Virus genome (UHGV): UHGV-2095518
Direction: 5' to 3' (one strand)
DNA: 15,633 nt
DNA from: a virus
Part shown: piece by piece, positions 1 through 15,214 of the stretch
Layout: each line of letters begins with the position of its first letter
How positions within the stretch are numbered: the stretch's first letter is position 1
Made by a program: the position numbers and the translations under genes
The notes under the pieces: model-generated
Seen by the model: the letters and a program-made list of their open reading frames with translations, nothing else
What the model was told of the DNA's origin: nothing
Databases searched by the model: none

Positions 1-211
1 CACCTCTCGCAGCCTTGCGCTTATCTTCTTTAATCTTGAAATAAAGGTTTGTCAGGTACGTCAGCAGGCCAAATACCAGACTACCCAGCACACCGATTGC
101 AGCCCACTGTGACGGAGTTACTCTATCGAGCAACTGTAAAAACCAGTAGCCAGCACTGCCTGCGGAGGTGCCGTAGGCAATGCCTGTTGAAATTTTGTCC
201 ATGGATTTCAT
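1..211 (-). CDS. S: Class II holin (pinholin), phage 21 S-type; partial, last codon(s) and stop lie beyond the window start
   Basis: Hand translation of the minus strand from ATG at 209-211 gives [70 protein letters not shown], which matches my recollection of the phage 21 S holin. It has the Met1-Lys-Ser-Met4 dual-start arrangement and a GGAGGTGAGG Shine-Dalgarno just upstream. It is not in the ORF track because no stop falls inside the window. Confidence 0.75.
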
Positions 212-462
212 AGCCTCACCTCCGCACGGAACGGATGGCATAGTTATTATGTGTAGGCTTTCAGACACATCAATCAGAGCCTTAATTGATATATATGCTG
301 GAGACGATGCAATATAAAAAGCTCGCCGTAGCGAGCTAATATAATGTATTTCTCTGATATTATGTTTATTTGTATTAGCTCAGACTTGACATCACAGGTT
401 TCGTATATAGAACATCATCAAATCTGTCAGTTTGCTATGAATGAGATATAGTAATTGAAGAG

Positions 463-858
463 CTAACCTCGCATGTCAAAGCCAGATTTCTGAAAATCTC
501 TGTAGACTTCCGGATTGTTGAAGGCCGGAAATTTGGCTTTATGAGCTGCGGACTTTATCGCTTCGCAATAGGCTTTATCACCGTTACTGGTAGATATTTT
601 TAACGCCGTGCCATCCTGAGAGAATTCCATATGCAACCTGCATTTTTTCCCTTTCCAGTTATGCGGCTCATCAAGTTTGGCATTAATTGCAGCTCTGATT
701 CCCCGCGCTTGCGCCCCCCATTCATCCTGATCATCCCAGCGTCCTGAACTGCAACTACCTGTAGCAGTAGTTTTGTGGCAATCTGAAGGGTGTAAAGGTG
801 TGCATCCCGCAACAAAACCGACCCAAAAAGTCAACATAACGATTTTCTTTAATCCCAC
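463..858 (-). CDS. Lipoprotein with a divergent TolA domain III-like mature domain
   Basis: 131-aa ORF with a GTG start preceded by GAGGA. Signal peptide with lipobox VAGC (MGLKKIVMLTFWVGFVAGC). The mature part (IRAAINAKL...GKKCRLHMEFSQDGTALKISTSNGDKAYCEAIKSAAHKAKFPAF..PEVYRDFQ) follows the pattern of the E. coli TolA C-terminal domain, including the conserved Cys pair. Paralogous to the 1009..1437 gene. Confidence 0.6.
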   Translation of the reverse strand: MGLKKIVMLTFWVGFVAGCTPLHPSDCHKTTATGSCSSGRWDDQDEWGAQARGIRAAINAKLDEPHNWKGKKCRLHMEFSQDGTALKISTSNGDKAYCEAIKSAAHKAKFPAFNNPEVYRDFQKSGFDMRG

Positions 859-1008
859 TTCTTGCTCCTCAATCCATTAAAATCTCAGCAATAGTAGTTG
901 TTACGTCCGCCACTGGCTCAGAGCTGACTATCCGCTAAATTTAGCTCAGTGCCGTAGCTGTGTCAGAACAAACCTAAGCCGAAACCGTTTATTACAAAAC
1001 AATAAATA

Positions 1009-1437
1009 TCAGGGTTTAAAATCCAGCACCCCATTTTGAAATACTTTATATACTTCCGGCGAAGGGGGGGCAGGTATATCAGCATTCTTTATCGCATTCA
1101 TCGCTTCACGACATAAATCGAGGTCTCCACTTTCTCTTTTAACCTCCAGTAGAAGGCCATTCGGGGCCATATGCATTCTCAGTGTACACTCTTTTCCTGA
1201 ATACTTACTCGCATCCCCGAACTGTTTTTCGATGGCGCTCTTGATTTGATGGGCATACAGACGGATATCCTCACTAACATCAGAAGTACGTTCAGATGAA
1301 CTCACATACTGTGTCTCTATTGCTTTATCGGAGTAATATGATGTACGGTCATGATAATTTGTCGATACAGCATCAGTGCACCCGATAATAATCCCACTAA
1401 TAATCAACGTAAGAATTGATGCGCTACGAAAACCCAT
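1009..1437 (-). CDS. Lipoprotein carrying a TolA domain III-like C-terminal domain
   Basis: 142-aa ORF with ATG start and GAGGAAAA Shine-Dalgarno. Signal peptide with lipobox-like IIGC. The C-terminal ~85 aa (HQIKSAIEKQFGDASKYSGKECTLRMHMAPNGLLLEVKRESGDLDLCREAMNAIKNADIPAPPSPEVYKVFQNGVLDFKP) closely parallel the TolA C-terminus as I remember it (..GQIKSAIESKFYDASSYAGKTCTLRIKLAPDGMLLDIKPEGGDPALCQAALAAAKLAKIPKPPSQAVYEVFKNAPLDFKP). Confidence 0.7.
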   Translation of the reverse strand: MGFRSASILTLIISGIIIGCTDAVSTNYHDRTSYYSDKAIETQYVSSSERTSDVSEDIRLYAHQIKSAIEKQFGDASKYSGKECTLRMHMAPNGLLLEVKRESGDLDLCREAMNAIKNADIPAPPSPEVYKVFQNGVLDFKP

Positions 1438-1466
1438 TTTTCCTCACATATGTCATATAGTAAAGG

Positions 1467-1496
1467 ATTATATATACCGTTGTTTTGGACGCTCAA
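1467..1496 (-). promoter_or_regulatory. Candidate sigma70 promoter for the 1009..1437 lipoprotein gene
   Basis: On the minus strand TTGAGC (-35) is followed after ~16-18 nt by TATATAAT (-10), about 30-40 nt upstream of the start codon in an AT-rich intergenic region. Confidence 0.3.
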
Positions 1497-2025
1497 ACAG
1501 CGAATCAGATCAAATAAAACGCACATTTGTTAACATTTACACAAAGTCTGCGTGGGATATTCTGAAAGAATATCCATAATGTGGAGAGAATCTATTGAAG
1601 TGCATGGTGCCGGGTGCCTCCCGGTGAACAAAATGTTCGTGATACCTGTCGGCGACAGAAAAGGTTAATGGTATCACCCCACCGCACAGGGGGATTCACC
1701 ATGCAGGAGTTTTCTTAGCAAACTCACTGCGCGCCCGGCAACTCCCAACCACATAAAATGCGGAGTTTGTGGTATTTATGCATATAACTCGCAGGAATTA
1801 TCTTAAAAAACTGATGTCGATCCGGATTAAAAAGAAGCAGGTCATCATCAGATGACTGGAAAAAAGGAAAACAAAAAATACTCATCATACAGTTTTGATT
1901 GCAGGGATGAGCCTGCTATGCACAATATGCAGAATATAAGCAAGATAAAAATATGCAGGCATATTATTTCGGGTTTTGTTATTAACACAACCTTTTTAAT
2001 AATCATTTGGCATACAATAAACCAG

Positions 2026-2055
2026 CCCAAAAAGAACCGCCTAAACAGGCGGTTG
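2026..2055 (-). terminator. Rho-independent terminator-like hairpin
   Basis: Stem AACCGCC / GGCGGTT with a 6-nt loop; on the minus strand it is followed by CTTTTTGGG. Confidence 0.35.
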
Positions 2056-2371
2056 GTCAATACAAAGGATGCTTCGTCTTTATTATAGTAATCTGAGGCG
2101 TCGGGTGTCTTGTATCAGACAACATATTGTCCCGCTAAACAGCGAATTACAAACCACCCTGCAATGATCTCTCATCTCATTTTATATGAGTTGACGACAT
2201 CAGGATAACGCATCATCAGCCCCTGCCAAGAAATATCAAAACTCCCGCCAGCAATGTGTTATCACAATATTGTAAAAAAAACACAGCACCGAAACTATAA
2301 CTGGTCTCTGTTATAATTTGGAGCAGAAAGACCAGTTGCCCAACTAGCAGCATTCTCCCCTGCTTTCCTGA

Positions 2372-2400
2372 CGTAAAAAAACCGCATTAAGCGGTTTTTT
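2372..2400. terminator. Bidirectional rho-independent terminator (tR'-like) just downstream of the Q-like gene
   Basis: AAAAAAACCGC-ATTAA-GCGGTTTTTTT: a GC stem flanked by an A-run on one side and a T-run on the other, about 90 bp past the stop of the 2482..3024 gene. Confidence 0.6.
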
Positions 2401-2481
2401 TACGATGTCCATGTCTGCAATCCGCCTCGCGATACAGCTTTGCGAAGCATAGCAAAATTGAAGCAGTTTATACGTAAGAAA

Positions 2482-3024
2482 TCAAGCCATTTTCTCAGCA
2501 AATGATTCACGCATGGGAATATATAGGGCATACTCAGCAACAGCTAACCAATTAGCAATCCGTTTTTCGCATGTGCTAAAACACCACTCTGGGTGTGCAT
2601 CATTTAGCAATTCAGCCATTTTGCGCTTAGTCATCCCCCGCCCTTCATAGCGTTGCCGGAGAATGCAAATCAATCCTGGATGCTCTGCCAGCACCTCACT
2701 TATGACTCGATCAATACATAACGCCTCTGCATCAGTACAATGCGCCAGCCAGCTCTTTTGCTTGCCGTTGATCATCTCTCGCAAAAACGCTTCCAGCTCA
2801 GCTTTCTCTATTCCCGCTTTTTTCATTCTGCGCAGGGCTTCATTAATGGCTGTTTTCGTCAGTTTTTTGGATGCCAACAACTGATTGAACATATTCCCTG
2901 ACCTGCCACCGCCAATATACGACCAGCGCCCCCACATACGTAGTTTTCCCTGAATCCAGACACTTTCCAGCGTGGTGAGGCGAAGGTGTTCTCCGCTTTT
3001 TCCTGTATTCGTTGGGTAAATCAT
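2482..3024 (-). CDS. Putative late-gene antiterminator (Q-like)
   Basis: 180-aa ORF whose start overlaps the upstream gene stop by 4 nt. The N-terminal LRMWGRWSY motif resembles the RWGAW motif of small Q antiterminators such as DLP12 QuuD. It sits directly upstream of a strong terminator and, further on, a holin. Confidence 0.5.
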   Translation of the reverse strand: MIYPTNTGKSGEHLRLTTLESVWIQGKLRMWGRWSYIGGGRSGNMFNQLLASKKLTKTAINEALRRMKKAGIEKAELEAFLREMINGKQKSWLAHCTDAEALCIDRVISEVLAEHPGLICILRQRYEGRGMTKRKMAELLNDAHPEWCFSTCEKRIANWLAVAEYALYIPMRESFAEKMA

Positions 3025-3311
3025 AAATGACCTTTCTTTCTCCAGATTTCTTGTGTGCGAAAAACCCCTTCAGCATGCATCAGGCGCAATTCTTCTTTGG
3101 TGTAATCGCTGGTTTTTACCCGCCCGTCGATTAGATCGTGGCATGAGCTACAGGCTATCGCCGCCTGCATATCGTGTGGTTTTGTCGCTGTTCCGCACGT
3201 CCCCGCCAGCCTGTAATGCGCCAGCACAGAGGTTTCGGGATTGTGATTGCAGTAGCCAGGGATTCTGATCTGGCACATCTGGCCTTTAGCCGCTTTACGT
3301 AAATTCACCAT
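3021..3311 (-). CDS. YbcO-like (DUF1364) Cys-rich putative nuclease
   Basis: 96-aa protein MVNLRKAAKGQMCQIRIPGYCNHNPETSVLAHYRLAGTCGTATKPHDMQAAIACSSCHD... matches my recollection of E. coli DLP12 YbcO in length, Cys spacing and several motifs (LRKAA, CQ.RIPG.CN.NPETSVLAH.RL.G.CGT.TKP, IACS.CHD). Translationally coupled to both neighbours. Confidence 0.6.
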   Translation of the reverse strand: MVNLRKAAKGQMCQIRIPGYCNHNPETSVLAHYRLAGTCGTATKPHDMQAAIACSSCHDLIDGRVKTSDYTKEELRLMHAEGVFRTQEIWRKKGHL

Positions 3312-3910
3312 TACGCAAACTCCAGTAGTTGTGCGGCCACATTTTCAACTTCCTCCTGAGAGGAGAATTTACGGAACAGAATCCAGTTCCACAGCACATT
3401 CAGTACAGATTTATAAACCTGCTGAAACTCGACTTCGTCCATATTCGCAAAAGCGATGGATTTTGCCCGACGCCCACGGCTACCGTCCGGATAAATATGC
3501 TCGGTGTAAAATCCGGCCTGAATGGTTACCCACTCGCGGAAAGCCTCAAACGACTTTAGCAACGCCGTATCCCGGGTTCTACGAGTCGCAACGGTGTTAA
3601 GGTATTGCTCTGCGGCATCACTCAGGGCTGGCGTGTGTTCCCGACCAACTGATTCGCACAGGTAATCAACGAAACCAGACAGCAGTTCTCGTTCGCGAGG
3701 CGTGATCGCCCCACCGACCGGAGTCCAGTAATCGAATCCCAGTTGCAGGAGTTTGAAAAAACGCTTGTGGAATGCGTAGTTACGCACACGCTTAAAGTCT
3801 GCGTGTATCCACTCACCTATTTTGATTTGATGCAGAAAATCGCAACTCTCCGGCGTCGCCGGGAGAAGTAAACCAGAAGAAGTTTGTTTGACCAGTTGTA
3901 TATGCGCCAT
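3311..3910 (-). CDS. Lambdoid nin-region protein (DUF1367-like), function unknown
   Basis: 199-aa ORF lying immediately upstream of the YbcO-like and Q-like genes, overlapping the YbcO-like start by 1 nt. The call rests on position and size; the family assignment is from memory. Confidence 0.45.
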   Translation of the reverse strand: MAHIQLVKQTSSGLLLPATPESCDFLHQIKIGEWIHADFKRVRNYAFHKRFFKLLQLGFDYWTPVGGAITPRERELLSGFVDYLCESVGREHTPALSDAAEQYLNTVATRRTRDTALLKSFEAFREWVTIQAGFYTEHIYPDGSRGRRAKSIAFANMDEVEFQQVYKSVLNVLWNWILFRKFSSQEEVENVAAQLLEFA

Positions 3911-4361
3911 TTCTCAATCTCTCGATGGCGCAGTGCAGCAGATGCCAGTTGTTCAGGCTGACGTATAAAGTATAAATAAACTGGTTCCAGTGTAAAGCCC
4001 CCACCTTAATGGAATAAAAACCAAACAACAGATTGCTGGGATACAAACAACGCTTATTATTAAAAGCGGTTAAACAAATTAAATTTTAATGTTATGCAAA
4101 TTTGTCAGATCACCATAATATCTCATTTGAAAACCGCTGAAATAACAGCCCTATCAGGGTTAATCATATTAAGGTGAGTAAATATGGAAAACAACAAATC
4201 TGTACATTACGTTCCTTTTTTATCTGTAATACTTTTTGTTTTATGCTGTGCGTGGGCATTATTTTTATAAAAATATTTACAGATGAAGTAAACCCGCCAA
4301 TCAGGTTAACTGTGGCTGCGTTGAGGATGCATAATACATCAGAGGTTGCGGGGATTTCTCC

Positions 4362-5701
4362 CATAAGCGCTAACTTAAGGGTTGTGGTATTACGCCTGAT
4401 ATGATTTAACGTGCCGATGAATTACTCTCACGATAACTGGTCAGCAATTCTGGCCCATATTGGTAAGCCCGAAGAACTGGATACTTCGGCACGTAATGCC
4501 GGGGCTCTAACCCGCCGCCGCGAAATTCGTGATGCTGCAACTCTGCTACGTCTGGGGCTGGCTTACGGCCCCGGGGGGATGTCATTACGTGAAGTCACTG
4601 CATGGGCTCAGCTCCATGACGTTGCAACATTATCTGACGTGGCTCTCCTGAAGCGGCTGCGGAATGCCGCCGACTGGTTTGGCATACTTGCCGCACAAAC
4701 ACTTGCTGTACGCGCCGCAGTTACGGGTTGTACAAGCGGAAAGAGATTGCGTCTTGTCGATGGAACAGCAATCAGTGCGCCCGGGGGCGGCAGCGCTGAA
4801 TGGCGACTACATATGGGATATGATCCTCATACCTGTCAGTTCACTGATTTTGAGCTAACCGACAGCAGAGACGCTGAACGGCTGGACCGATTTGCGCAAA
4901 CGGCAGACGAGATACGCATTGCTGACCGGGGATTCGGTTCGCGTCCCGAATGTATCCGCTCACTTGCTTTTGGAGAAGCTGATTATATCGTCCGGGTTCA
5001 CTGGCGAGGATTGCGCTGGTTAACTGCAGAAGGAATGCGCTTTGACATGATGGGTTTTCTGCGCGGGCTGGATTGCGGTAAGAACGGTGAAACCACTGTA
5101 ATGATAGGCAATTCAGGTAATAAAAAAGCCGGAGCTCCCTTTCCGGCACGTCTCATTGCCGTATCACTTCCTCCCGAAAAAGCATTAATCAGTAAAACCC
5201 GACTGCTCAGCGAGAATCGTCGAAAAGGACGAGTAGTTCAGGCGGAAACGCTGGAAGCAGCGGGCCATGTGCTATTGCTAACATCATTACCGGAAGATGA
5301 ATATTCAGCAGAGCAAGTGGCTGATTGTTACCGTCTGCGATGGCAAATTGAACTGGCTTTTAAGCGGCTCAAAAGTTTGCTGCACCTGGATGCTTTGCGT
5401 GCAAAGGAACCTGAACTCGCGAAAGCGTGGATATTTGCTAATCTACTCGCCGCATTTTTAATTGACGACATAATCCAGCCATCGCTGGATTTCCCCCCCA
5501 GAAGTGCCGGATCCGAAAAGAAGAACTAACTCGTTGTGGAGAATAACAAAAATGGTCATCTGGAGCTTACAGGTGGCCATTCGTGGGACAGTATCCCTGA
5601 CAGCCTACAAAACGCAATTGAAGAACGCGAGGCATCGTCTTAACGAGGCACCGAGGCGTCGCATTCTTCAGATGGTTCAACCCTTAAGTTAGCGCTTATG
5701 G
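4362..5701 (+). mobile_element. IS186-like insertion sequence (IS4 family)
   Basis: Terminal inverted repeats CATAAGCGCTAACTTAAGGGTTG at 4362-4384 and its reverse complement ending at 5701 enclose a single transposase gene. The flanking 12 bp are also inverted-symmetric (GGGGATTTCTCC on the left, GGAGAGATCCCC on the right), so the exact ends are uncertain by about 12 bp. Confidence 0.8.
4417..5529 (+). CDS. insL: IS186 transposase
   Basis: The ORF translates MNYSHDNWSAILAHIGKPEELDTSARNAGALTRRREIRDAATLLRLGLAY..., recognised as the IS186 transposase. The ORF track opens at a GTG at 4411; the ATG at 4417 is the more likely start. Confidence 0.85.
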   Translation: MNYSHDNWSAILAHIGKPEELDTSARNAGALTRRREIRDAATLLRLGLAYGPGGMSLREVTAWAQLHDVATLSDVALLKRLRNAADWFGILAAQTLAVRAAVTGCTSGKRLRLVDGTAISAPGGGSAEWRLHMGYDPHTCQFTDFELTDSRDAERLDRFAQTADEIRIADRGFGSRPECIRSLAFGEADYIVRVHWRGLRWLTAEGMRFDMMGFLRGLDCGKNGETTVMIGNSGNKKAGAPFPARLIAVSLPPEKALISKTRLLSENRRKGRVVQAETLEAAGHVLLLTSLPEDEYSAEQVADCYRLRWQIELAFKRLKSLLHLDALRAKEPELAKAWIFANLLAAFLIDDIIQPSLDFPPRSAGSEKKN

Positions 5702-5758
5702 GAGAGATCCCCGCCACTCTTCGTGTGTCAGGTATCCTCAATGCACCCTTTCCTCTCC

Positions 5759-5784
5759 AAATAAAAAAGCTCCCGAAGGAGCTT
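5759..5784 (-). terminator. Rho-independent terminator ending the virion-gene operon
   Basis: AGCTCC-CGAA-GGAGCT hairpin; on the minus strand it is followed by TTTTTTATTTGG, about 20 bp past the stop of the 5805..6314 gene. Confidence 0.55.
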
Positions 5785-5804
5785 TAAAATACAAGGGATG
5801 ACTC

Positions 5805-6314
5805 TTAATCCCAATCAATCCAGTTGTAGACGATACGAAGTGACGGGCGCACAGCAGCAGTCACATCTTCGGTACTAAAGTCGATTGCATCACTGTAGAT
5901 TTTGCAGTCCAACATTTCAATTGTTGTAGCAGCTTTTGTCACAGCGTTAACCCCGGAAGATTTGGATTCAGGGGTAGCAGCCATCGTGATATCAACATAG
6001 TCTTTCTCTGCAATGCGATCCTTAATGAACTGAAGAATATCGCCTTCGATAGTCTCCACGCACTGGACCTGGATTTCCCCAGAGTTTCGAATTGGACCGT
6101 GCTGGTTGAACTTCACACCATTCGGACCATAGTCCTCCACATCCTCGCGGGTCATTTCAGGAATTTGCGATGTGCGAACCGGTACGCTGATATCTTCATG
6201 GCCTGCAAAAGTGAGCTGGAATTCAGAAGATACCAGTCGTTCGCCTTTGGCCGCGTTGGCAGTATAGCGGCCCTTAATAAATTTACGGTTTCCCTTAGTG
6301 TTATTGTGCCCCAT
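5805..6314 (-). CDS. Hypothetical virion protein, last gene of the structural operon (possible tail tube or tail-associated)
   Basis: 169-aa ORF with an AAAAGGA Shine-Dalgarno, 11 bp after the upstream gene, in an operon with a sheath-like gene. No family recognised by eye. Confidence 0.4.
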   Translation of the reverse strand: MGHNNTKGNRKFIKGRYTANAAKGERLVSSEFQLTFAGHEDISVPVRTSQIPEMTREDVEDYGPNGVKFNQHGPIRNSGEIQVQCVETIEGDILQFIKDRIAEKDYVDITMAATPESKSSGVNAVTKAATTIEMLDCKIYSDAIDFSTEDVTAAVRPSLRIVYNWIDWD

Positions 6315-6325
6315 ATAAAATCCTT

Positions 6326-6907
6326 TTACTGGAACGCCCGAACAATATCGGAGCTGTTATATATCGAAGAACCGGTCAACTGGAGGTTGACGGTGTTTTT
6401 CAGGAAATGCCCATTACTATCCCTGGGGGCATCGAGATCGAAACTAAGGTCCTGGATAGCGACATCAATGATGTTGATCCGGCGACCAATGTTTAGCGTC
6501 ACACGCTCCGGGATTCGACCACCAATACTAGCGTCTTTAAGTTCCGGGCTAATCATTGCTGACAACGCGGCGATAGCACCTGAAACTTCCGTATATGGGT
6601 TAAACAAAGCAATGAAAGTTACTGGCAGCGTGAAAGTCGGCGGTGTCCCCCCTTCCCAAACCATTAAGCTGTTCCAACGGGCAACTGACGTTGTTTCAGT
6701 ACCAACCTGCGCAAAACCACTGAAGGCACCAGCAACAGAACCCATAGACATACCGGTAAACGGCGCTTCCCAATTCTGGGCCAGATTCATTGCCGCCCCC
6801 TGGCTGATATATCCGGTAACCTGGTACTGAGAGTTCGTTAAAGTAACTTTCAGAAATGGCGATACACCGTCAGCCTGGCTGTAAACCCCAAAAGGTATAG
6901 GTGCCAT
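6326..6907 (-). CDS. Hypothetical virion protein (size fits a tail tube protein)
   Basis: 193-aa ORF in the same operon, Gly/Ser/Thr-rich. The function is inferred only from context. Confidence 0.4.
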   Translation of the reverse strand: MAPIPFGVYSQADGVSPFLKVTLTNSQYQVTGYISQGAAMNLAQNWEAPFTGMSMGSVAGAFSGFAQVGTETTSVARWNSLMVWEGGTPPTFTLPVTFIALFNPYTEVSGAIAALSAMISPELKDASIGGRIPERVTLNIGRRINIIDVAIQDLSFDLDAPRDSNGHFLKNTVNLQLTGSSIYNSSDIVRAFQ

Positions 6908-6942
6908 TCAAGTTAAAGGCCGGAGTTCTCCGGCATCCTCCT

Positions 6943-7758
6943 TTAGCCGAGGCGCTTACGGCGCAGTTTCATTGACTTTTTGCGGGCCAGTTTTGCCGCG
7001 CCGGTCTGGGCTTTACGACGCGCTTTTTTCAGCGCCGATTTTTGAGCCGCAGTCAGACGTTTTTTACGCAGACGTTTACGGATGAGCTTGATCTCACCGT
7101 TACGAACAACCTTCTTAAATGCTTCAGTCAGCATTTCATCAGAAGTGCCAGCAACAACAAACGCCGCTTCCAGTTCGTCGCGGTCGTCGCTATCCAAACC
7201 AGCGATAGCGGAACCAACATCAGCAGCTGCGTCGTCGTCTTCATCGTCGGTCAATGCTTCGATCAGGTCATCATCTACACCGCATGCTGCGAGGAAGTCA
7301 GCAACATTTGCCCATGCTTCGTTATAGGCATCGTCCTGTTCTTCTGTAACTTCGGTATCGTCGTCGTCAGAGATACCAGCGATAGCCTGAACGAAACCAT
7401 CAAGGGAGTCGAAAGTCAGATCACCGCTATCAGCCCAGGCGAAAACGGCATCGGCCGCATTACTCAACGCATTCTGCATAGCACTTCGATTTGCAGCTTC
7501 CAGAATCATCTTGTGCGCCTGTTCGACGGTCCATTCTTTACCTTCTTTTCCTTCCAGGATTTGCTCAGGTGCCGGGTCAGATTGAACGTTCTCGTTAATC
7601 TGTGCCGCCGGTTCCGGATTATTATTAATCACCGGTTCGGTTGGCGGTTGGGCACTTACACGGGCAGATTCCATCAACTGCACCGGATCAGCGTTCAAAG
7701 CGAAACGGGACAGTCCATTCCCCAAAAATGCCCCGGATTGAAAAAAGTTTTTGCTCAT
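6943..7758 (-). CDS. Acidic protein with a poly-basic C-terminal tail, function unknown
   Basis: 271-aa ORF with an AAGGGA Shine-Dalgarno, starting 10 bp after the sheath-like gene. The centre is extremely D/E-rich (..SDDDDTEVTEEQDD.., ..TDDEDDDAAAD.., ..DSDDRDELE..) and the last ~50 aa are K/R-rich (KLIRKRLRKKRLTAAQKSALKKARRKAQTGAAKLARKKSMKLRRKRLG). Confidence 0.5.
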   Translation of the reverse strand: MSKNFFQSGAFLGNGLSRFALNADPVQLMESARVSAQPPTEPVINNNPEPAAQINENVQSDPAPEQILEGKEGKEWTVEQAHKMILEAANRSAMQNALSNAADAVFAWADSGDLTFDSLDGFVQAIAGISDDDDTEVTEEQDDAYNEAWANVADFLAACGVDDDLIEALTDDEDDDAAADVGSAIAGLDSDDRDELEAAFVVAGTSDEMLTEAFKKVVRNGEIKLIRKRLRKKRLTAAQKSALKKARRKAQTGAAKLARKKSMKLRRKRLG

Positions 7759-7767
7759 TGTATTCCC

Positions 7768-9357
7768 TTACTTAATAAGCAGCGGTACGCCATGGATACG
7801 ACGGGCTACGCCAGTCGGGCAGCAGGCCCAGACTACTTCCCATTTATCGAATTCCGCCTGCGTAACTTTCAGCACATACGGTTCTGTACCGTCAGCATCA
7901 GGATCACGAGGAGCCACCAGAGCGCCGGAGGCGACAAAGCGATCTAAAAGTTTGGTCATCCCTTTAGTCAGGCCAGCCGCAGTAATACCGTCCGGGCTAT
8001 GCTTCATCTGTCGGGCTAACTGGACAAAGAAACGGCTGATTGCATTCATCAGGGATGGGACGTGCTGGAAGTGCAGATAGTTATCCTGCGTGCAGCAAGT
8101 TAAAGCATCGTCGATGATCATCTGGCCAGAGGTGCCAACAGATACTTTATTGAGACGGCCCTTGACCATTGCTTCTTCGTCCGGGGTATCTTCCGGATAC
8201 AGCGGTTGAATTGACGCACGAGCAATGACGGCACGTTCTTCACCAGCCGGTGAGTAATGCCAACCGCCGACATCAGAGTTTTTCTTGACGCCACGAGCTT
8301 TCGCCGCATACGCCGCGCCAGACAGACCGAAGACCACACGGGATTGGGTCCATTTGTCTTTGCAGGAGAACGGGAAGTGATAGACAGCACAGCTTACATA
8401 ATCGGTACCAAGTAAACCGGTATCTTCAACAGCAGAGATCGCTTCCGTGTACGTCAATGTCGGTTTGACATCAAAGAAGCCATCAATCAGGCGATCTGCA
8501 CAGATTTTACCTAATGCGGTGATAGCCGCATTGTCATAGCAGCCCAAGCCAAGAACAGCGGTGTACATGTACGGCGCATTGTTCAGCACTTTCACCGCAC
8601 GCAGGTACGCAGCGGTTGAGATTTTCGACTGATCACCGTTGGTACCACCAGTGAACGCCAACGATTTTTTGTTTGTTACTTTCGCTGTAGAAATCAGATC
8701 TTCATTAACAACCGCGCGCAGATATTTAGAACGGGCTTCCAGAGCCGTAGGCAGATAACACAAGCGGCCCATGTCATCTTTCGCTTCTTCCACCAAAGAC
8801 ACAGTGTGTGTCTCCAGGGTCGTTACCACACCGAGCGAAGTCGTCTGGGTTAGTTTTAAGAGGAAGCGTTCATTACCCGCGCTGTCCGCTGTTGCCGTTT
8901 CGATGGTTAACTCACGGGTAGGTGAAATACACGGATCACCATCATCAACGTAGATAGCAAAGGCTTCGCCGCTATCAAGTTCAATTTCAGAACCATATGG
9001 CAACGCAGTGTAAGCCGGTTCGCCTGATTCATCGAACATAATAATCGGGAACTTCGCATCATCCGGAACAGCACGGACAACATAACCAGACGTTTGCTGA
9101 ATAGCTTCGTACACATGGCGAATTGGTTCGAACTGTGAGCCGGAAGACGGCTTCAGCGGTTCGCCGAGAACATCTTCGTAATTGGACTCAGTAACCGCAA
9201 GAACAGTAAACGGCTTGCCACGCGCAAATACGCCAATACCAGCCCACAAGCTGCTATTTAATGCAACACCGGTAGATAACGTCGCATCGGCATTGATCGG
9301 GCTAACCGCGACGCCGGATGCATTACCTAATGACTGTTGAATTGAATATTGAGACAT
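7768..9357 (-). CDS. Contractile-tail sheath protein (putative)
   Basis: 529-aa ORF with an AGGGAAAG Shine-Dalgarno. It contains a GGWHYSPAGEERA segment resembling the W.SPAG..RG motif I recall from T4 gp18 and P2 FI, and has a sheath-like C-terminal region; the size and operon context also fit. Confidence 0.55.
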   Translation of the reverse strand: MSQYSIQQSLGNASGVAVSPINADATLSTGVALNSSLWAGIGVFARGKPFTVLAVTESNYEDVLGEPLKPSSGSQFEPIRHVYEAIQQTSGYVVRAVPDDAKFPIIMFDESGEPAYTALPYGSEIELDSGEAFAIYVDDGDPCISPTRELTIETATADSAGNERFLLKLTQTTSLGVVTTLETHTVSLVEEAKDDMGRLCYLPTALEARSKYLRAVVNEDLISTAKVTNKKSLAFTGGTNGDQSKISTAAYLRAVKVLNNAPYMYTAVLGLGCYDNAAITALGKICADRLIDGFFDVKPTLTYTEAISAVEDTGLLGTDYVSCAVYHFPFSCKDKWTQSRVVFGLSGAAYAAKARGVKKNSDVGGWHYSPAGEERAVIARASIQPLYPEDTPDEEAMVKGRLNKVSVGTSGQMIIDDALTCCTQDNYLHFQHVPSLMNAISRFFVQLARQMKHSPDGITAAGLTKGMTKLLDRFVASGALVAPRDPDADGTEPYVLKVTQAEFDKWEVVWACCPTGVARRIHGVPLLIK

Positions 9358-9417
9358 AACTTTCCCTGTTATGCGCCCCGCACGGGGGCGCTATGTTAAA
9401 CGGAGAACTTCCCCTGA

Positions 9418-10125
9418 TTACTCAGAGTCACCGGCATCAATCGTGTCGCCGCTTATAAAGTTAAGCCCGCCTTTTTTGGCCATTGTCAGCGTTACACGAG
9501 TGAAGTAATCAGCGCCGTTGCGTGGGTGCATATCGTTGATAGCCGAACCCCACAGTGTGGTACGGTTGACCAGCGCCGGAGTGGTCGGATGCTGGAACGG
9601 GATAGCCGGGACAGCATCACCAGTCACGAAGCCTGCTTTACCCGGATTTTCATCACGGACGTAGCACAGCACATCCATCGAGCTGAACTGAATGTTCTCT
9701 GTCGTTAAGTTCTTACAAATACCAGCAGGTACTTCGTACACTTTTACGTTACCGAACAGGGTACCGATGTAGTGAACATACGGAGTCTGGATATAGTCTT
9801 CGGCTGGCTGGAAGAAATCCTTCGGCAACTGTTTGAAGAAAGATGCTGCATCAGCACCAGCAAACATCCCCATCGCACCAGAAGATTTAACGCGCTCAAT
9901 AATGTCGCGATATACAGTCTGGAATTTTCCACGAATGATGGTTGCCCATACATCAAAGGACTGGTTAACCGGCAGAGCGATGTCAAAGGTGTCGGTCGCA
10001 AGAGTGCGCCAGATCATGATGCGAAGACGCAGCATATCCTGTTCATGAGACAGGTATTCCTTCAGGGTGCGGAACTGTAGGGAACCCAGGTCCAGACCAA
10101 ATTCACGCTGTGCTTCATACGCCGC
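9418..10125 (-). CDS. C-terminal part of a capsid-like ORF, in frame with and immediately downstream of the TAG at 10126-10128
   Basis: The reading frame stays open from the TAG through AAYEAQREFGLDLGSLQFRTLKEYLSHEQDMLRLR... to the stop at 9418. The first ATG (10033-10035) has no convincing Shine-Dalgarno, so this looks like a continuation of the upstream frame rather than an independent gene. Confidence 0.45.
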   Translation of the reverse strand, partial: AAYEAQREFGLDLGSLQFRTLKEYLSHEQDMLRLRIMIWRTLATDTFDIALPVNQSFDVWATIIRGKFQTVYRDIIERVKSSGAMGMFAGADAASFFKQLPKDFFQPAEDYIQTPYVHYIGTLFGNVKVYEVPAGICKNLTTENIQFSSMDVLCYVRDENPGKAGFVTGDAVPAIPFQHPTTPALVNRTTLWGSAINDMHPRNGADYFTRVTLTMAKKGGLNFISGDTIDAGDSE

Positions 10126-11124
10126 CTATACCGTGTGCTCAGCCGCGATAACGAACTGACTTGGGAACAGGGTGTATTTCTTCATTTCGTGGTTGATCAG
10201 CGGGATCAGCTCAGGAGCGGCTTCAATATTGATTTCCGTCTCAATTGCGATCTCAGTGCCTTTATCCGGCGCTTTGGAGAACGACAGGGCAATCTGACCA
10301 ATGTTGTAGTTCAGAGAGCAGGTAACAGTGATTTGCTCACCAGCAGCATTAGTAAACGAGTGAAGTAGGCTGCCGGAACCGTTATCAACAACAGACTTAA
10401 TACGGTTAACGTAGATGTTAGTGCGACCTTTTCGGATTGGTACATTCTGGCCTTCGAAGTCTTCCATCTTGAAGGTTGCGGTTTTGCTGGTGCCATCGGA
10501 GCTTGCCACCAGCACATAGCGGCGGCGTAACTGGCTGTACACACCGACGGATTGCATGTCCAGAACATCACCAGCAGCATAAGAACCAAAAGAGGAACCT
10601 GCCACGTTAAAGACTTCATAGATGTCGGACTGGTCACGCGTAACCGGAATGAAGGTACACGCATCAGCGGTAGCTGCCCCCAACTGAACAGGCAGGATCA
10701 TCGCGAGGAATAAAGGCAGACGCATAACACCGTCAGAAACGCTCATCATCTCTGCTGCGACGGATTCCAGCATCGCTTTATTAGTGGCATCCATGCTATT
10801 GCGGGTGGACTCAATCAGGCAGTTTTCCAGCGTCTGGTGGCAGGAGGCCAGAATTTCCGGACGCGGCATAGATTTATGTGCTGCGGCGTAGTCAGCCAGT
10901 GCACTTGCCCACGCGGTAGCAATTTGAGCGGTGGCATTATCAGAGATACCCGCAAAAATTGGGTCTTTACGTGCAGCTTCAAGGATAGATGCGGCACGCG
11001 CGGCATCATCTTTGATGAATTGGTTATCAGTACCGAACTGTGCTGTACTTGCCCAGCCAAGAACGGCTTTAGAGCGTTTTGCGATATCTGCAATACGATT
11101 CTGGTATTCGCGTAAGTTACTCAA
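10126..11124 (-). CDS. N-terminal part of a putative major capsid protein precursor (about 568 aa if the TAG at 10126-10128 is read through)
   Basis: Probable TTG start at 11122-11124, 6 nt after AAGGAAG; the ORF track opens at an upstream TTG at 11145. The frame ends in TAG after ...AAEHTV. It is the first gene of the virion operon, immediately downstream of parB/parS, which is where I recall P1 placing its major head gene; the combined size of about 62 kDa also fits. Confidence 0.45.
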   Translation of the reverse strand: MSNLREYQNRIADIAKRSKAVLGWASTAQFGTDNQFIKDDAARAASILEAARKDPIFAGISDNATAQIATAWASALADYAAAHKSMPRPEILASCHQTLENCLIESTRNSMDATNKAMLESVAAEMMSVSDGVMRLPLFLAMILPVQLGAATADACTFIPVTRDQSDIYEVFNVAGSSFGSYAAGDVLDMQSVGVYSQLRRRYVLVASSDGTSKTATFKMEDFEGQNVPIRKGRTNIYVNRIKSVVDNGSGSLLHSFTNAAGEQITVTCSLNYNIGQIALSFSKAPDKGTEIAIETEINIEAAPELIPLINHEMKKYTLFPSQFVIAAEHTV

Positions 11125-11145
11125 GTTACTCTTCCTTAAACACAA

Positions 11146-11388
11146 GGCACTTGTGTGAATCCCTTTTCGGAAGAGATTTTATTGAAAGTCACTTGTTGAC
11201 TTTCTCGCGAAAAGTAATTTTTTAAATTTTTTGTGCGGGGAAGTGGACGGTGAATGCAGGCGTTAAATTGTGGGAATTTCAGTCTGAAACCCCCCTAAAA
11301 AACACATGCAAATCACAAGGTTAGCAATGAAATCGGTGCGGGACATTTTAGGAAGGGGAGGGGCTAACACCACCTCCCACCAGCGGGA
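11146..11388. promoter_or_regulatory. parS-like partition site region, probably also carrying the promoter of the virion operon
   Basis: Intergenic segment directly downstream of parB, the position of parS in P1-family plasmids. It contains an 8-5-8 palindrome GAAAGTCA-CTTGT-TGACTTTC (11184-11204), a TGAAATCGGTG motif (11327-11337) resembling the P1 box A/box B arrangement, TGAAT/ATTCA heptamer-like repeats and an AT-rich tract. Confidence 0.45.
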
Positions 11389-12354
11389 TTATTCCCCAGC
11401 AGACATTTTCCCAATGATTTTTTTTATTGCTTCGTCAATTTCAGTTTGCACTTCAGACGGGAGTCTGGAGAACTCGTAGGCGACAACCCGTTTTTTCGGA
11501 TCGGACTTCTTTCGAGCATATTGGCGACGGTCAGAGAAGTCTCGCAGCTTCTCAACCACCACAGATTTAACCGGCGCGGGCTTCAGGCTTTTGCTTTCCG
11601 CTTTGAAGATAGCCAGTATCTTCGCTTTATCCTCTTTCGCGCCCTCAGTCTCTGCAATTCGCTCGCGCACCGTATCAACCAGATCTCCAATCGGTACGTT
11701 TTTGGCGTTAGCATCTTCGGAGATCTGGAGCAGCAACTGGTAATCAGGCAGGGCGAGATCGCTGGCAACAGGGAAGACAGCAATCATCTCATCCGGCACC
11801 GCCGCAGCCTGGAAAGCTCGCGTCACTTTAGCCTTTGAGATGTTCTCAGCTCGGGCGATCTCTTCTTTGGTCATATTCTTGCCGTACATAACCTCGAAGC
11901 GTTTACCCAGCTCGCGCAGAGTGTGTTCGCGGGCTGTCTGGATATCAATGGCCAGCTGGCGGGCATCCGCCAGGCTGATCTCATCTTTCGTCACCAGAAT
12001 CTCAAATTTCGTTTCATTGAAGATACACGCAGCGCGGCGACGTGATCCGTCCAATACCTCAATGCGCTCCCCAACCATACGACCGATAGCCGGGAAGAAC
12101 TGTTGCAATTTAATGGTGCGGGAAATATCGCTTACCGACTCAGGGGTGAGCAGAGACTGATCGCGGCCGTTAACTGCCGGGTCAACGAACGTGCGCGACT
12201 CAATCTCACCACTCAGCACAACGGTAAGCAAAAATTTAGCCTGGCGACCAGATTTTAGGGTAAAGGTTTTGGTGCCTTCACTGCCTTCAAGCATGCGAGC
12301 AAACTCGGAGCTATTCTTGCCCAGCACTCGTCCACGGGAAACTATTTTTTTCAT
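11389..12354 (-). CDS. parB: ParB centromere-binding partition protein (type Ia)
   Basis: 321-aa ORF with the ParB GSRRRAA motif (LDGSRRRAACIF) and an HTH region, translationally coupled to parA (4-nt overlap). The overall pattern is P1/P7 ParB-like but clearly divergent from the P1 ParB I recall. Confidence 0.85.
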   Translation of the reverse strand: MKKIVSRGRVLGKNSSEFARMLEGSEGTKTFTLKSGRQAKFLLTVVLSGEIESRTFVDPAVNGRDQSLLTPESVSDISRTIKLQQFFPAIGRMVGERIEVLDGSRRRAACIFNETKFEILVTKDEISLADARQLAIDIQTAREHTLRELGKRFEVMYGKNMTKEEIARAENISKAKVTRAFQAAAVPDEMIAVFPVASDLALPDYQLLLQISEDANAKNVPIGDLVDTVRERIAETEGAKEDKAKILAIFKAESKSLKPAPVKSVVVEKLRDFSDRRQYARKKSDPKKRVVAYEFSRLPSEVQTEIDEAIKKIIGKMSAGE

Positions 12355-13562
12355 GCCGCCTCACCCCTAACAAACTCAATTCGATCAAACACAGCCTTAG
12401 TGAAACGCTCGGCCTCGGTTCGTGCCTTCTTCAGCGCCTCTGCACTGCCTGGATACGATTGCGGGTTGGCACTGATTACGGTGTCGAAAGACTCGCCGCA
12501 TCGCTCAAAGCCATCCAGACGAGGCAGAGAAGAGTCCAGAATGTTGCTGGCGTAAACCTCACGCGCAAGGCTGTGTGATGTCTCGTGATCGCGCTTGCCG
12601 GTCATCTTCGACATAAAACCAATGCTGGCGCTCAAACGCGGTTCTACGCCTTCCTCCTCCAGTTGCTCCAGCATTTCTGGCAGACGGGTGAGATATTTCA
12701 GTGTTGAGTGGAAGTCAACCTGGGCTGGTGGGGTAGGGGTAAGCAGCAAATCGCTGGCCGCCAGACCGTTGAGCAGGAACGGATCCAGGTGTGGACCGGT
12801 ATCAATAAAGATAAAGTCATAATCATCCGCAACACGATCAATGATATTGCGTCGAAGGATTTCGTACTGATTTTGTCCGGGAAGATGCTCTTCAACCAGC
12901 TCTTTCCATTGGCTGGCAACAAAGCCATCGTCGATAGAGGCTGGAATCACGTCTACGCCAGGAACGATGGTCGGACGAATCACCTCTTTGCGTAGCGTCT
13001 CCGCGTCCAGGTCGTTCAGCATCGCCTGCGCGGCGGTTTCCAGGATGGAACCAATACTGTGAGTATGGTCGAGGAACATTGTGCTGGATGCCTGAGGGTC
13101 AAGGTCAATTACCAGAATGCGCAGATCGTGACGCAGTAAATCCTGATGCACACGCAGAGCGTGCGCCAACGTTACTGTGGAAACCGTTTTGGATACGCCA
13201 CCCTTCAGGTTTACGACAAAAATAACGTAAGGCGATTTGTGAATGTCGCGATATTTGGGGATCTTACGGTGGGCATAGATATCAATGACGTTCTGGATGG
13301 TCAGCGCGTACTGTTCAACGTTACCGACCTGTTTCTTGTTGAACTGGTACCCATCATCTTCCATCTCTTTGATGGCCTGCTCCACAATGCGGCGGCTCAG
13401 CTTCGGCAACTTTGCCACAGCGTTACGAGTGAACGTCTGATAATACTCGGTCTGATTGAACTCTTTACGCTGATCTTCAATATCCTGACTCATGGCCTTA
13501 AGTAATGCGCTTGCACGAAGAGCTATGGTGCCGACACCGCCGTAATCGCGTTTCATCATCAT
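12351..13562 (-). CDS. parA: ParA partition ATPase (type Ia, with N-terminal DNA-binding extension)
   Basis: 403-aa ORF with the deviant Walker A motif NLKGGVSKTVSTV and a conserved C-terminal region (RLDGFERCGESFDTVISANP..AVFDRIEF) as in P1 ParA. The ~100-aa N-terminal extension is typical of autoregulatory type Ia ParA. Confidence 0.9.
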   Translation of the reverse strand: MMMKRDYGGVGTIALRASALLKAMSQDIEDQRKEFNQTEYYQTFTRNAVAKLPKLSRRIVEQAIKEMEDDGYQFNKKQVGNVEQYALTIQNVIDIYAHRKIPKYRDIHKSPYVIFVVNLKGGVSKTVSTVTLAHALRVHQDLLRHDLRILVIDLDPQASSTMFLDHTHSIGSILETAAQAMLNDLDAETLRKEVIRPTIVPGVDVIPASIDDGFVASQWKELVEEHLPGQNQYEILRRNIIDRVADDYDFIFIDTGPHLDPFLLNGLAASDLLLTPTPPAQVDFHSTLKYLTRLPEMLEQLEEEGVEPRLSASIGFMSKMTGKRDHETSHSLAREVYASNILDSSLPRLDGFERCGESFDTVISANPQSYPGSAEALKKARTEAERFTKAVFDRIEFVRGEAA

Positions 13563-13665
13563 CTCCTTATCATTTAGTATGAGTGAATTGTACGTTTGAT
13601 TCTGCTACGTGCAACTTTTTTTGATTCGTGCGCCAATTATTGCACGTAAAGAAATGGCGATGAGG
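13563..13665 (-). promoter_or_regulatory. parAB promoter/operator region
   Basis: Immediately upstream of parA: a large inverted repeat CTACGTGCAA (13604-13613) ... TTGCACGTAA (13639-13648) around an AT-rich centre, as expected for the ParA autoregulatory operator. Confidence 0.5.
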
Positions 13666-13950
13666 TTATTAGATGTGTGCTGGAGGGATGATGCAGGACC
13701 AGAATGTGCGATAGAGGGAAGTCGCATTGAATTATGTGCTGTGGAGGGATCGCTGGTATCAAATATGTGTGCTGGAGGGAAAGATAGAAGATTAGATGTG
13801 CGCTGGAGGGAAACTTGGATGGTTAGATGTGTGCTGGAGGGAATGTCTGGGCAAACTGCGTGGCGCAACCCTCCAGCGCACACCAAAAACAGGAAAATGG
13901 GCAGGCATTCCCGGCAGCGCACATTTTTCAAATGCAGCTGCCCTCCAGCA
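13666..13950. repeat. incA iteron array (about nine 19-bp RepA-binding repeats in both orientations)
   Basis: Repeats of GATGTGTGCTGGAGGGA and variants at about 13666, 13698, 13726, 13758, 13789 and 13820 in one orientation, and CCCTCCAGCGCACAC-type copies at about 13861, 13900 and 13935 in the other, directly downstream of repA. This is the P1 incA copy-control arrangement. Confidence 0.85.
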
Positions 13951-13955
13951 CACAC

Positions 13956-14816
13956 TTATTCGGGAAGTTTCAGCTTTGGATTGCGAGAATGGACGATTAC
14001 AAAACTTTCCCGGCCTTTCTTCTCAATTGAACAGTCGAGATAGCCGATTGTTTTAAGCTGTTCTATCGCTTTCTTAATGATACGGTTTTGCTCGCCAACA
14101 GCTGACTGCAAAGCCAGGCGCTCACGGATTCGCGCGAACGATAGCGGCAACGGGTTCTGCGGAAGGCTTTCGATGAAAGTGTAAATGGCTTGTGCAGCTT
14201 CTTTCTTCGGAAGGGCACGCAAGGCGTGGTGTTGCAACAGAACGCGATAATCAAGCTGGAACAGCTCCCACAGCTTCGAATCAGCCTCCAGTTCTATCAG
14301 ATCAAGGTCAGCATCAAAACGCCCGACCTTCAGCAGACCAGTCTGATAGCCGCCTTTAGCATCTTTTCCGCGCTTAAAAGCGATACCCTTGTTACGCAAG
14401 CGTCCAAGTGATTCATGAATGGTTAAACGCAGTTTCGCATCCAGACGTTTTGAGGGGAAACCACAGGCTTTAGCGAATTCCTGAAACGATAACTGGATGG
14501 TGTTTGAGGACAAGCCGTATTTGCTGAACGCGTAGATGACACCGATCCACGTTTTGAAATCAGTATCCATATCGAGTCGAGGACCGGTGATTTTAATATC
14601 ATCGTAACCCTCGGCTTTAGCTATCTCCAGCTGGGAAAACGCTTTGGTGGCATCAATCTCTTTACTTTCTCCTTTGCTCTTTGATGGCTTCGGCACGAAT
14701 ACCCCCAAACGCATCAACGCTACAGGCTGCACAGTGTTGTTTGAATTAACTGTTAGTTCTTTTGCCTTACTTTCAATGTCTGCGTAAAGAATATCGGATA
14801 TAAAAGATTGATTCAT
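13956..14816 (-). CDS. repA: Plasmid replication initiator RepA (P1 type)
   Basis: 286-aa ORF (MNQSFISDILYADIESKAKELTVNSNNTVQPVALMRLGVF...) flanked upstream by five and downstream by nine copies of the same 19-bp iteron, the defining organisation of the P1 R replicon. The protein matches my recollection of P1 RepA. Confidence 0.9.
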   Translation of the reverse strand: MNQSFISDILYADIESKAKELTVNSNNTVQPVALMRLGVFVPKPSKSKGESKEIDATKAFSQLEIAKAEGYDDIKITGPRLDMDTDFKTWIGVIYAFSKYGLSSNTIQLSFQEFAKACGFPSKRLDAKLRLTIHESLGRLRNKGIAFKRGKDAKGGYQTGLLKVGRFDADLDLIELEADSKLWELFQLDYRVLLQHHALRALPKKEAAQAIYTFIESLPQNPLPLSFARIRERLALQSAVGEQNRIIKKAIEQLKTIGYLDCSIEKKGRESFVIVHSRNPKLKLPE

Positions 14817-14871
14817 ATTGCTTTTTCCGAATTATGTGGATAGTTTTTATCAGTGATGATAACTACCCTGG

Positions 14872-14977
14872 CTTTCCCGTCAGCACACATCCTATATCCC
14901 GCCAGCACACATTAGCAACCCGTCAGCACACATTTTTTTCCCTCCAGCGCACATCGTTTTCCCTCCAGCACACATCG
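14872..14977. repeat. incC iterons (five 19-bp repeats) within oriR, overlapping the repA promoter
   Basis: Five direct copies of ..CC(C/G)(T/C)CAGC(A/G)CACAT.. at about 14872, 14897, 14918, 14938 and 14959, immediately upstream of the repA start. Confidence 0.85.
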
Positions 14978-14989
14978 CGAAAGGCTTCT

Positions 14990-15100
14990 AAGCCAGACGG
15001 GACGCGGCCTACGACGATCAGGGATCTATATGGATCTAATTGGGATCTGTATGGACCTGATTATTGGATCTATCCAGTGGATAATGTGGATAAGTGAAAA
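14990..15100. promoter_or_regulatory. oriR core: GATC-containing heptamer repeats and tandem DnaA boxes
   Basis: Five GATC sites (15016, 15023, 15033, 15044, 15067) within repeated GGATCT motifs, followed by DnaA boxes AGTGGATAA (15076-15084) and TGTGGATAA (15085-15093). A further DnaA-box-like TGTGGATAG lies at 14835-14843 on the repA side. Confidence 0.7.
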
Positions 15101-15121
15101 AACCGGCCAACGTAGCCGGTT
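15093..15121 (-). terminator. Rho-independent terminator shielding oriR from incoming minus-strand transcription
   Basis: AACCGGC-CAACGTA-GCCGGTT hairpin; on the minus strand it is followed by TTTTCAC. Confidence 0.4.
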
Positions 15122-15135
15122 GGAAGGGAGTCGTA

Positions 15136-15214
15136 TTATTCTACGCTTTCGATGAGAAGACCATGTTCATAGCATTTAAGCTCATCGCCCTCGTACAGGA
15201 ATTGGTATCCAATT
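15136..15214 (-). pseudogene. 3' remnant of a gene truncated by the IS3-family insertion
   Basis: The minus-strand frame reads ...[25 protein letters not shown] then TAA (15136-15138), followed by the terminator hairpin. The frame is cut off at 15214/15215 where the IS end begins. Confidence 0.3.

Follow-up and report, generated by a model that had tools for sequence, protein, structure and literature searches.

Gene content of the window

The window, meaning the whole stretch of 15,633 nucleotides that was analyzed, consists of a fragment of a lambdoid prophage on the left and a P1-like plasmid module on the right, with one complete copy of IS186 between them (Table 1). The left part is collinear with the late region of a chromosomal Rac-type prophage. 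Positions 1 to 4362 aligned with the chromosome of Escherichia coli Combat11I9 (positions 5002 to 9363 of locus L004) at 99.95% identity with no gaps, and in the SE11 context the region is accompanied by trkG, ydaU, and ydaV. The first-pass annotation had described this flank as a lambdoid Q and lysis fragment without its upstream replication and nin genes. The assignment agrees with the presence of DUF1367, YbcO, a DUF1133/Q-like gene, two TolA-like genes, and the end of a holin gene. The account of what is missing needs correction, because DUF1367 and YbcO are themselves nin-region genes; it is hok and everything upstream of hok that are absent. On PLSDB plasmids the left flank had no genuine match, only mislabelled chromosomes and distant matches to TolA-like genes.

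The right part combines the P1-type repA-parA-parB genes with virion genes in P1 order. Between positions 5763 and 15213, from bplB to repA, it shows 97% identity with phages P1 and P7, in keeping with the P1-type virion and plasmid backbone recognized earlier. A closer relative is the plasmid pWP8-S18-ESBL-06_2, which matched positions 4359 to 15633 at 99.98% identity, and PLSDB typing placed the relatives in IncY. Since gene 23 is split, the IncY module of the window is probably defective. Both ends of the window resemble the ends of short-read contigs: the left one lies at the boundary between holin and lysozyme, and the right one lies 86 bp into IS30, where the same structure runs on into IS30 in three other loci (L001, L003, and L047).

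The central element was aligned with IS186A and IS186B of E. coli K-12 MG1655 and was identical to them at 1339/1339 positions, with 0 mismatches. Perfect 23-bp terminal inverted repeats bound it at 4362 and 5700 (CATAAGCGCTAACTTAAGGGTTG at 4362 to 4384 and its complement at 5678 to 5700). The K-12 RefSeq annotation of IS186 spans 1345 bp, with three extra bases per end; because these bases belong to the target's G/C runs, the precise ends can be placed only to within a few bases. The single open reading frame of the element encodes the DDE_Tnp_1 transposase InsL, whose counterpart in locus L001 (WP_001300563.1) is annotated as an "IS4-like element IS421 family transposase." Scans for tRNAs and Rfam families returned nothing relevant to IS186. 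The earlier label "IS186-like" was right about the relationship but understated it: judged by its sequence, this is an ordinary IS186 and no new kind of element.

Table 1. Features of the window, with coordinates, strand, and remarks
Feature	Position	Strand	Remark
Rac-type lambdoid prophage late region	1..4361	-	99.95% to Combat11I9 chromosome
Holin 3' end	window left end, within 1..4361
TolA-like genes	463-858 and 1009-1437
STnc100 sRNA	1548-1734		Rfam
DUF1133/Q-like	2482-3024
YbcO	3021-3311
DUF1367	3311-3910
Prophage hok locus 3' tail (distal hairpin half and ~40 bp)	4314..4361	-	hok gene absent
Left target-site duplication half, GGATTTCTCC	4352..4361	.	belongs to prophage insertion event
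IS186 (IS421), complete, 1339 bp	4362..5700	+	K-12 identity and terminal inverted repeats
IS186 transposase InsL, 370 aa, DDE_Tnp_1	4417..5529	+	Pfam PF01609, E = 1.6e-26
Right target-site duplication half, GGAGAGATCC	5701..5710	.	belongs to P1-like plasmid insertion event
3' tail of P1-like plasmid hokD locus	5701..5748	+	hokD gene absent
P1-like IncY module	5749..15213	-	97% to P1/P7; 99.98% to pWP8-S18-ESBL-06_2
bplB	5805-6314
193-aa ORF, no individual name	6326-6907
tube	6943-7758
sheath	7768-9357
gene 23, split	9418-11145
parB	11389-12354
parA	12351-13562
repA	13956-14816
IS3-family element end, interrupted at 15548 by left end of IS30	15214..15633	+

Flanks of IS186 and the hok hairpin

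A simple insertion would leave identical direct duplications on the two sides of the element. Here, the left side reads GGATTTCTCC and the right side reads GGAGAGATCC. The 12-mers adjoining IS186 are GGGGATTTCTCC at 4350 to 4361 and GGAGAGATCCCC at 5701 to 5712. Direct comparison of the two gives 8/12 matching positions, and comparison after reverse-complementing one of them gives 11/12; their 6-bp cores, ATTTCT and AGAGAT, are different at 4/6 positions. A repeat search of the window found no direct repeat at the IS186 junctions. The first-pass annotation had quoted the same inverted 12-bp flanks, had reported no direct target duplication, and had suggested a search for a direct repeat of 10 to 13 bp, which proved absent at the junctions. 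The inversion reaches beyond the 12 bp noticed earlier: the inverted arms (4314 to 4384 and 5678 to 5748) are 71 nt long and 82% complementary, each consisting of the 23-bp IS186 repeat and 48 bp of flank, and the flanking portions match at 35/48 positions.

Comparison with lambdoid and P1-like genomes, as proposed earlier, revealed that each flank has an IS-free site of its own and that hok and hokD are absent from the window. The IS-free prophage site reads hok-GCGGGGATTTCTCCCCGC-DUF1367. The sequence at 4314 to 4361, which makes up the outer portion of the inverted repeat's left arm and aligns with the tail of P1-like hokD, continues in the IS-free Combat11I9 locus as ...GGGGATTTCTCCCCGC and then hok; read more fully, this site is ...GAGGTTGCGGGGATTTCTCCCCGCTGGTCC..., followed by the hok gene. 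Simple IS186 insertions with GGATTTCTCC at both ends were found in Ec1120 (L006), PK8568 (L050), and IMG/VR loci L030, L032, L033, and L038. Those in Ec1120, PK8568, and several IMG/VR contigs occupy the same position and have the same orientation as the element in the window. The left junction of the window was present in 43/5426 complete E. coli genomes.

The other parental site lies on P1-like plasmids. The IS-free plasmid CP063718 reads hokD-GGCGGGGAGAGATTCCCGCC-bplB, or hokD-GGCGGGGAGAGATTCCCGCCACTCTTCG...-bplB over a longer stretch, and the hokD tail at 5701 to 5748 of the window forms the outer part of the right arm of the inverted repeat. Plasmids pWP8, NCTC11129, ET665, and PK8568 carry a simple IS186 insertion with GGAGAGATCC on both sides, and this 10-mer borders both ends of IS186 in loci L001, L007, L049, and L051. 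The right junction of the window occurred in 32/5426 complete E. coli genomes.

The two flanks of the window were never contiguous in IS-free relatives, where the left one continues into the prophage hok gene and the right one is preceded by the plasmid hokD gene. Each of them runs unbroken into its own parent, at 99.95% identity for the prophage and 99.98% for the plasmid. Each half of the duplication thereby matches a different documented simple insertion. On the evidence of these flanks, the IS186 of the window is a hybrid, whose left duplication derives from the prophage insertion and whose right duplication derives from the plasmid insertion. The direct repeat is missing because the two halves come from two insertion events.

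The target of IS186, defined from 59 de novo insertions, is GGGG(N6/N7)CCCC, and some IS186 sites were hit repeatedly, in either orientation (PMC5009759). The IS-free prophage site, GGGGATTTCTCCCC, conforms to this target. The plasmid site as reconstructed from occupied copies, GGGGAGAGATCCCC, fits GGGG(N6)CCCC, and the sole IS-free plasmid examined (CP063718) reads GGGGAGAGATTCCC, a variant of the motif. GGGG(N6)CCCC is rare: the window contains 0 intact copies, and 0.11 are expected by chance per window. In hok-family loci, the sequence GCGGGG-N6-CCCCGC forms a conserved stem-loop about 10 to 20 bp past the stop codon, and in our alignment the hairpins of prophage hok, P1-like hokD, K-12 hokC, and K-12 hokE coincided. 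As RNA, the hairpin was predicted to form a stable fold of -21 to -23 kcal/mol (z = -3.3).

Prophage hok and plasmid hokD are close homologues, with homology extending ~45 bp beyond the hairpin. The prophage hok gene is on the minus strand, to the right of IS186, and the plasmid hokD gene is on the plus strand, to the left of IS186. The flanks of the window are inverted relative to each other because both are the distal tails of homologous hok loci that face IS186 from opposite sides. The first-pass annotation had offered a palindromic target made of a G-run and a C-run as a source of the inverted appearance. Such a target is indeed involved, but the actual cause is the pair of oppositely oriented hok 3' hairpins. 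Both orientations of IS186 were encountered at the plasmid site (L003, L012, L013, L016, L017, and L040 versus L001 and L007) and at the prophage site (L031 versus all others). Thus, each of the two sites has received IS186 independently more than once.

Origin of the hybrid joint

Of the two explanations put forward in the first-pass annotation, the second, a joint made by IS-mediated fusion of replicons or by assembly, is supported, and it can now be stated more sharply as the union of a left duplication from a prophage with a right duplication from a plasmid. We consider homologous recombination in vivo between two identical IS186 copies to be the most likely origin, with a probability of roughly 0.55. 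IS186 would have inserted separately into two hok hairpins, one between hok and DUF1367 of the prophage (GGATTTCTCC) and the other between hokD and bplB of the IncY plasmid (GGAGAGATCC), both of which insertions are documented in other genomes. The two identical 1.34-kb copies could then have acted as portable homology, and a RecA-type crossover within IS186 would have connected the prophage, on its DUF1367 side, with the part of the plasmid that runs from bplB to repA. The expected product, a single IS186 whose left duplication stems from one event and whose right duplication stems from the other, is the arrangement in the window. Both hok genes would have been left on the reciprocal junction, predicted to be hokD-IS186-hok; the window holds one junction only.

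The partners required for such an exchange occur together. In PK8568, the chromosome (NZ_CP080126.1) and plasmid pPK8568-122kb (NZ_CP080128.1) carry the two parental junctions in the required orientation. The parental IS186 copies are identical to the copy in the window; therefore, the position of a crossover cannot be mapped, and a join made in vivo would look the same in sequence as one made in silico. Some plasmid copies of IS186 have 1-bp homopolymer deletions, which may be sequencing errors and were left out of crossover mapping.

Comparable joints exist elsewhere. pCFR-9161, a finished plasmid of the Citrobacter freundii complex (CFNIH3), carries the IncY module with an IS186 bordered by the mismatched duplications GGCTGTACCC and GGAGAGATCC, and another mismatched pair of duplications occurs at the prophage site in IMG/VR contig L037. 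Together with contigs L014 and L015, these mismatched joins indicate that IS186-mediated re-joining of the IncY module happens in vivo. Recombination between homologous IS elements has also been measured in E. coli mutation-accumulation lines (PMC5009759).

We searched several sequence collections for the hybrid. With the whole window as the query, no place in PLSDB (72,556 plasmids) or in 50,697 phage records covered both flanks, and with positions 3400 to 6700, 0 places in 5426 complete E. coli genomes reached at least 80% coverage. An exact scan of the GTDB representative genomes for the left junction gave 0 matches. In IMG/VR, 10 loci had the left junction and 5 had the right one, with no contig common to both, and contigs encoding BplB or DUF1367 displayed the parental and other arrangements, none of them hybrid. 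The JGI metagenomes yielded two contigs with the left junction, both of which stop at the end of IS186. Several points stand against recombination in vivo: the hybrid junction was found nowhere else in the collections scanned, the identical parental copies leave a cellular and an assembly join indistinguishable by sequence, the reciprocal junction was not seen, and the contig-like ends of the window prompt one to ask by what path an assembler got through a 1.3-kb repeat.

These points lend weight to an assembly chimera, in which prophage::IS186 and P1-like plasmid::IS186 resided on separate molecules and the assembler crossed the identical 1339-bp IS from one to the other. We judge this to be a serious competitor, somewhat less probable than an even chance. 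Both parental IS186 copies are 100% identical to the copy in the window, which makes the repeat irresolvable from sequence alone. The two parents are frequent, and PK8568 shows that one cell can harbor both. None of the finished collections searched contains the hybrid, and the window ends fall in repeats, as those of a short-read contig would. The two metagenome contigs that have the same left junction and stop at the IS186 end count on both sides. They also illustrate that a multi-copy IS ordinarily ends a short-read contig instead of being bridged by the assembler, and a contig that does cross the IS is better explained by a resolved or single-copy path. In addition, the hybrid IS186 joint on the same IncY module in the finished plasmid pCFR-9161 argues that such joins occur in vivo.

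A transpositional cointegrate would have produced the same structure. Here, the prophage IS186 would have moved, by a replicative, dimer, or one-ended mechanism, into an empty hokD-bplB hairpin, fusing the replicons and creating the GGAGAGATCC duplication at that moment, with the old duplication next to the donor and the new one next to the target. The unoccupied site of the plasmid is a genuine target for IS186. Even so, we regard this route as improbable. IS10 and IS50 of the IS4 family transpose by non-replicative cut-and-paste, and by analogy with these studied members IS186 may be expected to do likewise. Moreover, plasmids in which IS186 already occupies this site, with matching orientation and 99.98 to 100% identity to the right arm of the window, are abundant, so a pre-existing second copy is the simpler source.

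The other explanation in the first-pass annotation, a simple insertion into one palindromic GGGG...CCCC target, followed by divergence of the duplication, draws on the outer GGGG/CCCC symmetry, the 11/12 reverse-complement match, and the variable length of IS186 duplications (Sengstag et al. 1986, as cited in PMC3562002), but the direct match of only 8/12, the dissimilar cores (4/6 positions), and the origin of the flanks in different replicons, never adjacent in IS-free relatives, contradict it, and the separate IS-free sites, each with its own perfect 10-bp duplication elsewhere, rule it out.

Under the preferred reading, recombination between two IS186 copies in vivo, the window would record an IncY replicon module that was integrated into, or captured by, a chromosomal prophage via IS186 and would add an example of IS elements serving as portable homology. 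An IS without a target duplication, whose flanking halves match different known insertions, clearly marks a joint as recombinant or chimeric. A joint of this kind needs to be checked against reads before the contig is called a prophage with P1 genes, a P1-like plasmid with lambdoid lysis genes, or a natural mosaic.

A broader and more tentative proposal, which we think is more apt to be wrong than right, is that the hok 3' hairpin constitutes a portable landing pad for IS186 in lambdoid prophages, P1-like phage-plasmids, and chromosomal hok loci. Parked IS186 copies would then serve as docking adaptors that repeatedly fuse phage-plasmid modules with prophages and other plasmids or swap modules among them, and the window would represent a real integration of an IncY replicon into a Rac-type prophage.

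Comparison with known IS186 insertions and joints

The element, its target motif, its association with the hok 3' hairpin, and the role of IS copies as portable homology are all established. The K-12 copies IS186A, IS186B, and IS186C (IS421, IS4 family) share their 1339 bp, 23-bp inverted repeats, and transposase with the element of the window. This element has no differences from K-12 IS186; only the two flanking duplication halves are mismatched. Each half-site by itself belongs to the target class of the K-12 copies, GGGG(N6)CCCC with a 10-bp GG-N6-CC duplication.

Two of the three K-12 copies, IS186A and IS186B, lie within the equivalent hairpin, 19 to 20 bp past hokC and hokE, at sites that read GGCGGGGATCACTCCCCGCC for hokC and GCGGGGAGTAATCCCCGC for hokE. 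The copy downstream of gef/hokC likely disrupts the fbi element (PMC3562002). As in the window, IS186 at hokC (gef) and hokE occupies the conserved hairpin that follows shortly after the stop codon of hok. The K-12 cases are simple insertions with matching duplications and an adjacent hok gene, whereas the window has no hok on either side, and its half-sites come from different loci. The link between IS186 and the hok hairpin follows from the published target specificity and the known arrangement of hok and IS186 in K-12. Sequence-specific targeting is illustrated by the hok loci at which IS186 was encountered, namely, hokC and hokE of K-12, hok of the Rac-type prophage, and hokD of the P1-like plasmids, with insertions in either direction at the last two.

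The joints closest to that of the window are those in pCFR-9161 and contigs L014 and L015. They share with it the IncY module, the same IS186, the right duplication GGAGAGATCC, a foreign left flank, and a mismatched duplication. Their left partner is a tyrosine-recombinase locus (GGCTGTACCC), whereas that of the window is a Rac-type prophage.

More generally, rearrangements and replicon fusions produced by recombination between IS copies have the same signature as the window, namely, one IS that separates unrelated contexts and whose two duplications do not match. The events scored in PMC5009759 were intrachromosomal deletions, whereas the partners in the window are a chromosomal prophage and a phage-plasmid, and their union in vivo is a proposal. 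The joint of a Rac-type prophage late region, IS186, and a P1-like IncY module is one more instance of a known process.

Mismatched IS186 duplications at other joints

IS186 and the IncY module were also found joined to a tyrosine-recombinase locus in the Citrobacter plasmid pCFR-9161 and in two contigs, L014 and L015. The module and the element are the same as those of the window, and the duplications flanking IS186 are mismatched in all three records (GGCTGTACCC versus GGAGAGATCC). This is a second hybrid joint, that is, a single IS186 bounded by target duplication halves from two separate insertions; it is independent of the one in the window, and one finished plasmid shows it. A further mismatched duplication pair at a hok hairpin is present in the IMG/VR contig L037, where the Rac-prophage flank GGAGAAATCC lies on one side of IS186 and a different hok-like tail, GGAGTGATCC, on the other.

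Features of the window and of related records
Feature	Record	Position	Strand	Remark
IS186 + IncY module joined to tyrosine-recombinase locus	pCFR-9161	7003-8341		
Same	L014 and L015	6615-7953		
IS186 with mismatched flanks	L037 (IMGVR_UViG_3300029508_000072)	2387-3725		
relB-relE-hokD left of IS186	pWP8-S18-ESBL-06_2	5228-6003		
P1-like segment with simple IS186 insertion	NCTC11129 (NZ_LR134222.1)	5000-18342		Record labelled 'chromosome'
STnc100 sRNA match	Window	1548-1734	-	Rfam, 86.6 bits; gathering score, 47
IS3-family element	Window	From 15214		Broken at 15548 by IS30
P1 gene 23, two ORFs	Window	9418-10035, 10126-11145	-	

Parental-type records and frameshifted IS186 copies

In the Klebsiella IncR/IncY plasmid pWP8-S18-ESBL-06_2, the left neighbor of IS186 is relB-relE-hokD rather than the P1-like repL-hokD, yet the duplication is identical on both sides. 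The hokD side of this plasmid may itself have been exchanged. The P1-like segment of NCTC11129 adjoins mobI/traI-type plasmid genes and IS1 copies, a setting that reflects either plasmid integration or merging during assembly.

The IS186 copies in pPK8568-122kb and the ET665 plasmid, each 1,338 bp long and annotated as frameshifted, carry 1-bp deletions in G-runs at IS positions of about 426 and about 217, respectively, which may be true inactivations or homopolymer sequencing errors.

Prophage flank, right end and virion module of the window

The prophage match to STnc100, a gammaproteobacterial sRNA, sits between the Q-like DUF1133 gene and TolA-like genes. At the opposite end, P1/P7 homology stops at 15213, and the window ends 86 bp inside IS30; the same IS3-family/IS30 nesting occurs in pWP8, pCFR-9161 and D9 plasmid B.

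The virion module of the window is probably defective, and the IncY replicon is probably the part of the P1-like module that is maintained. Gene 23, encoding the major head protein, is annotated with an 'internal stop' in the ET665 copy; it forms one 1,707-bp CDS in the P1-like plasmid CP063718, whereas in the window it is split.
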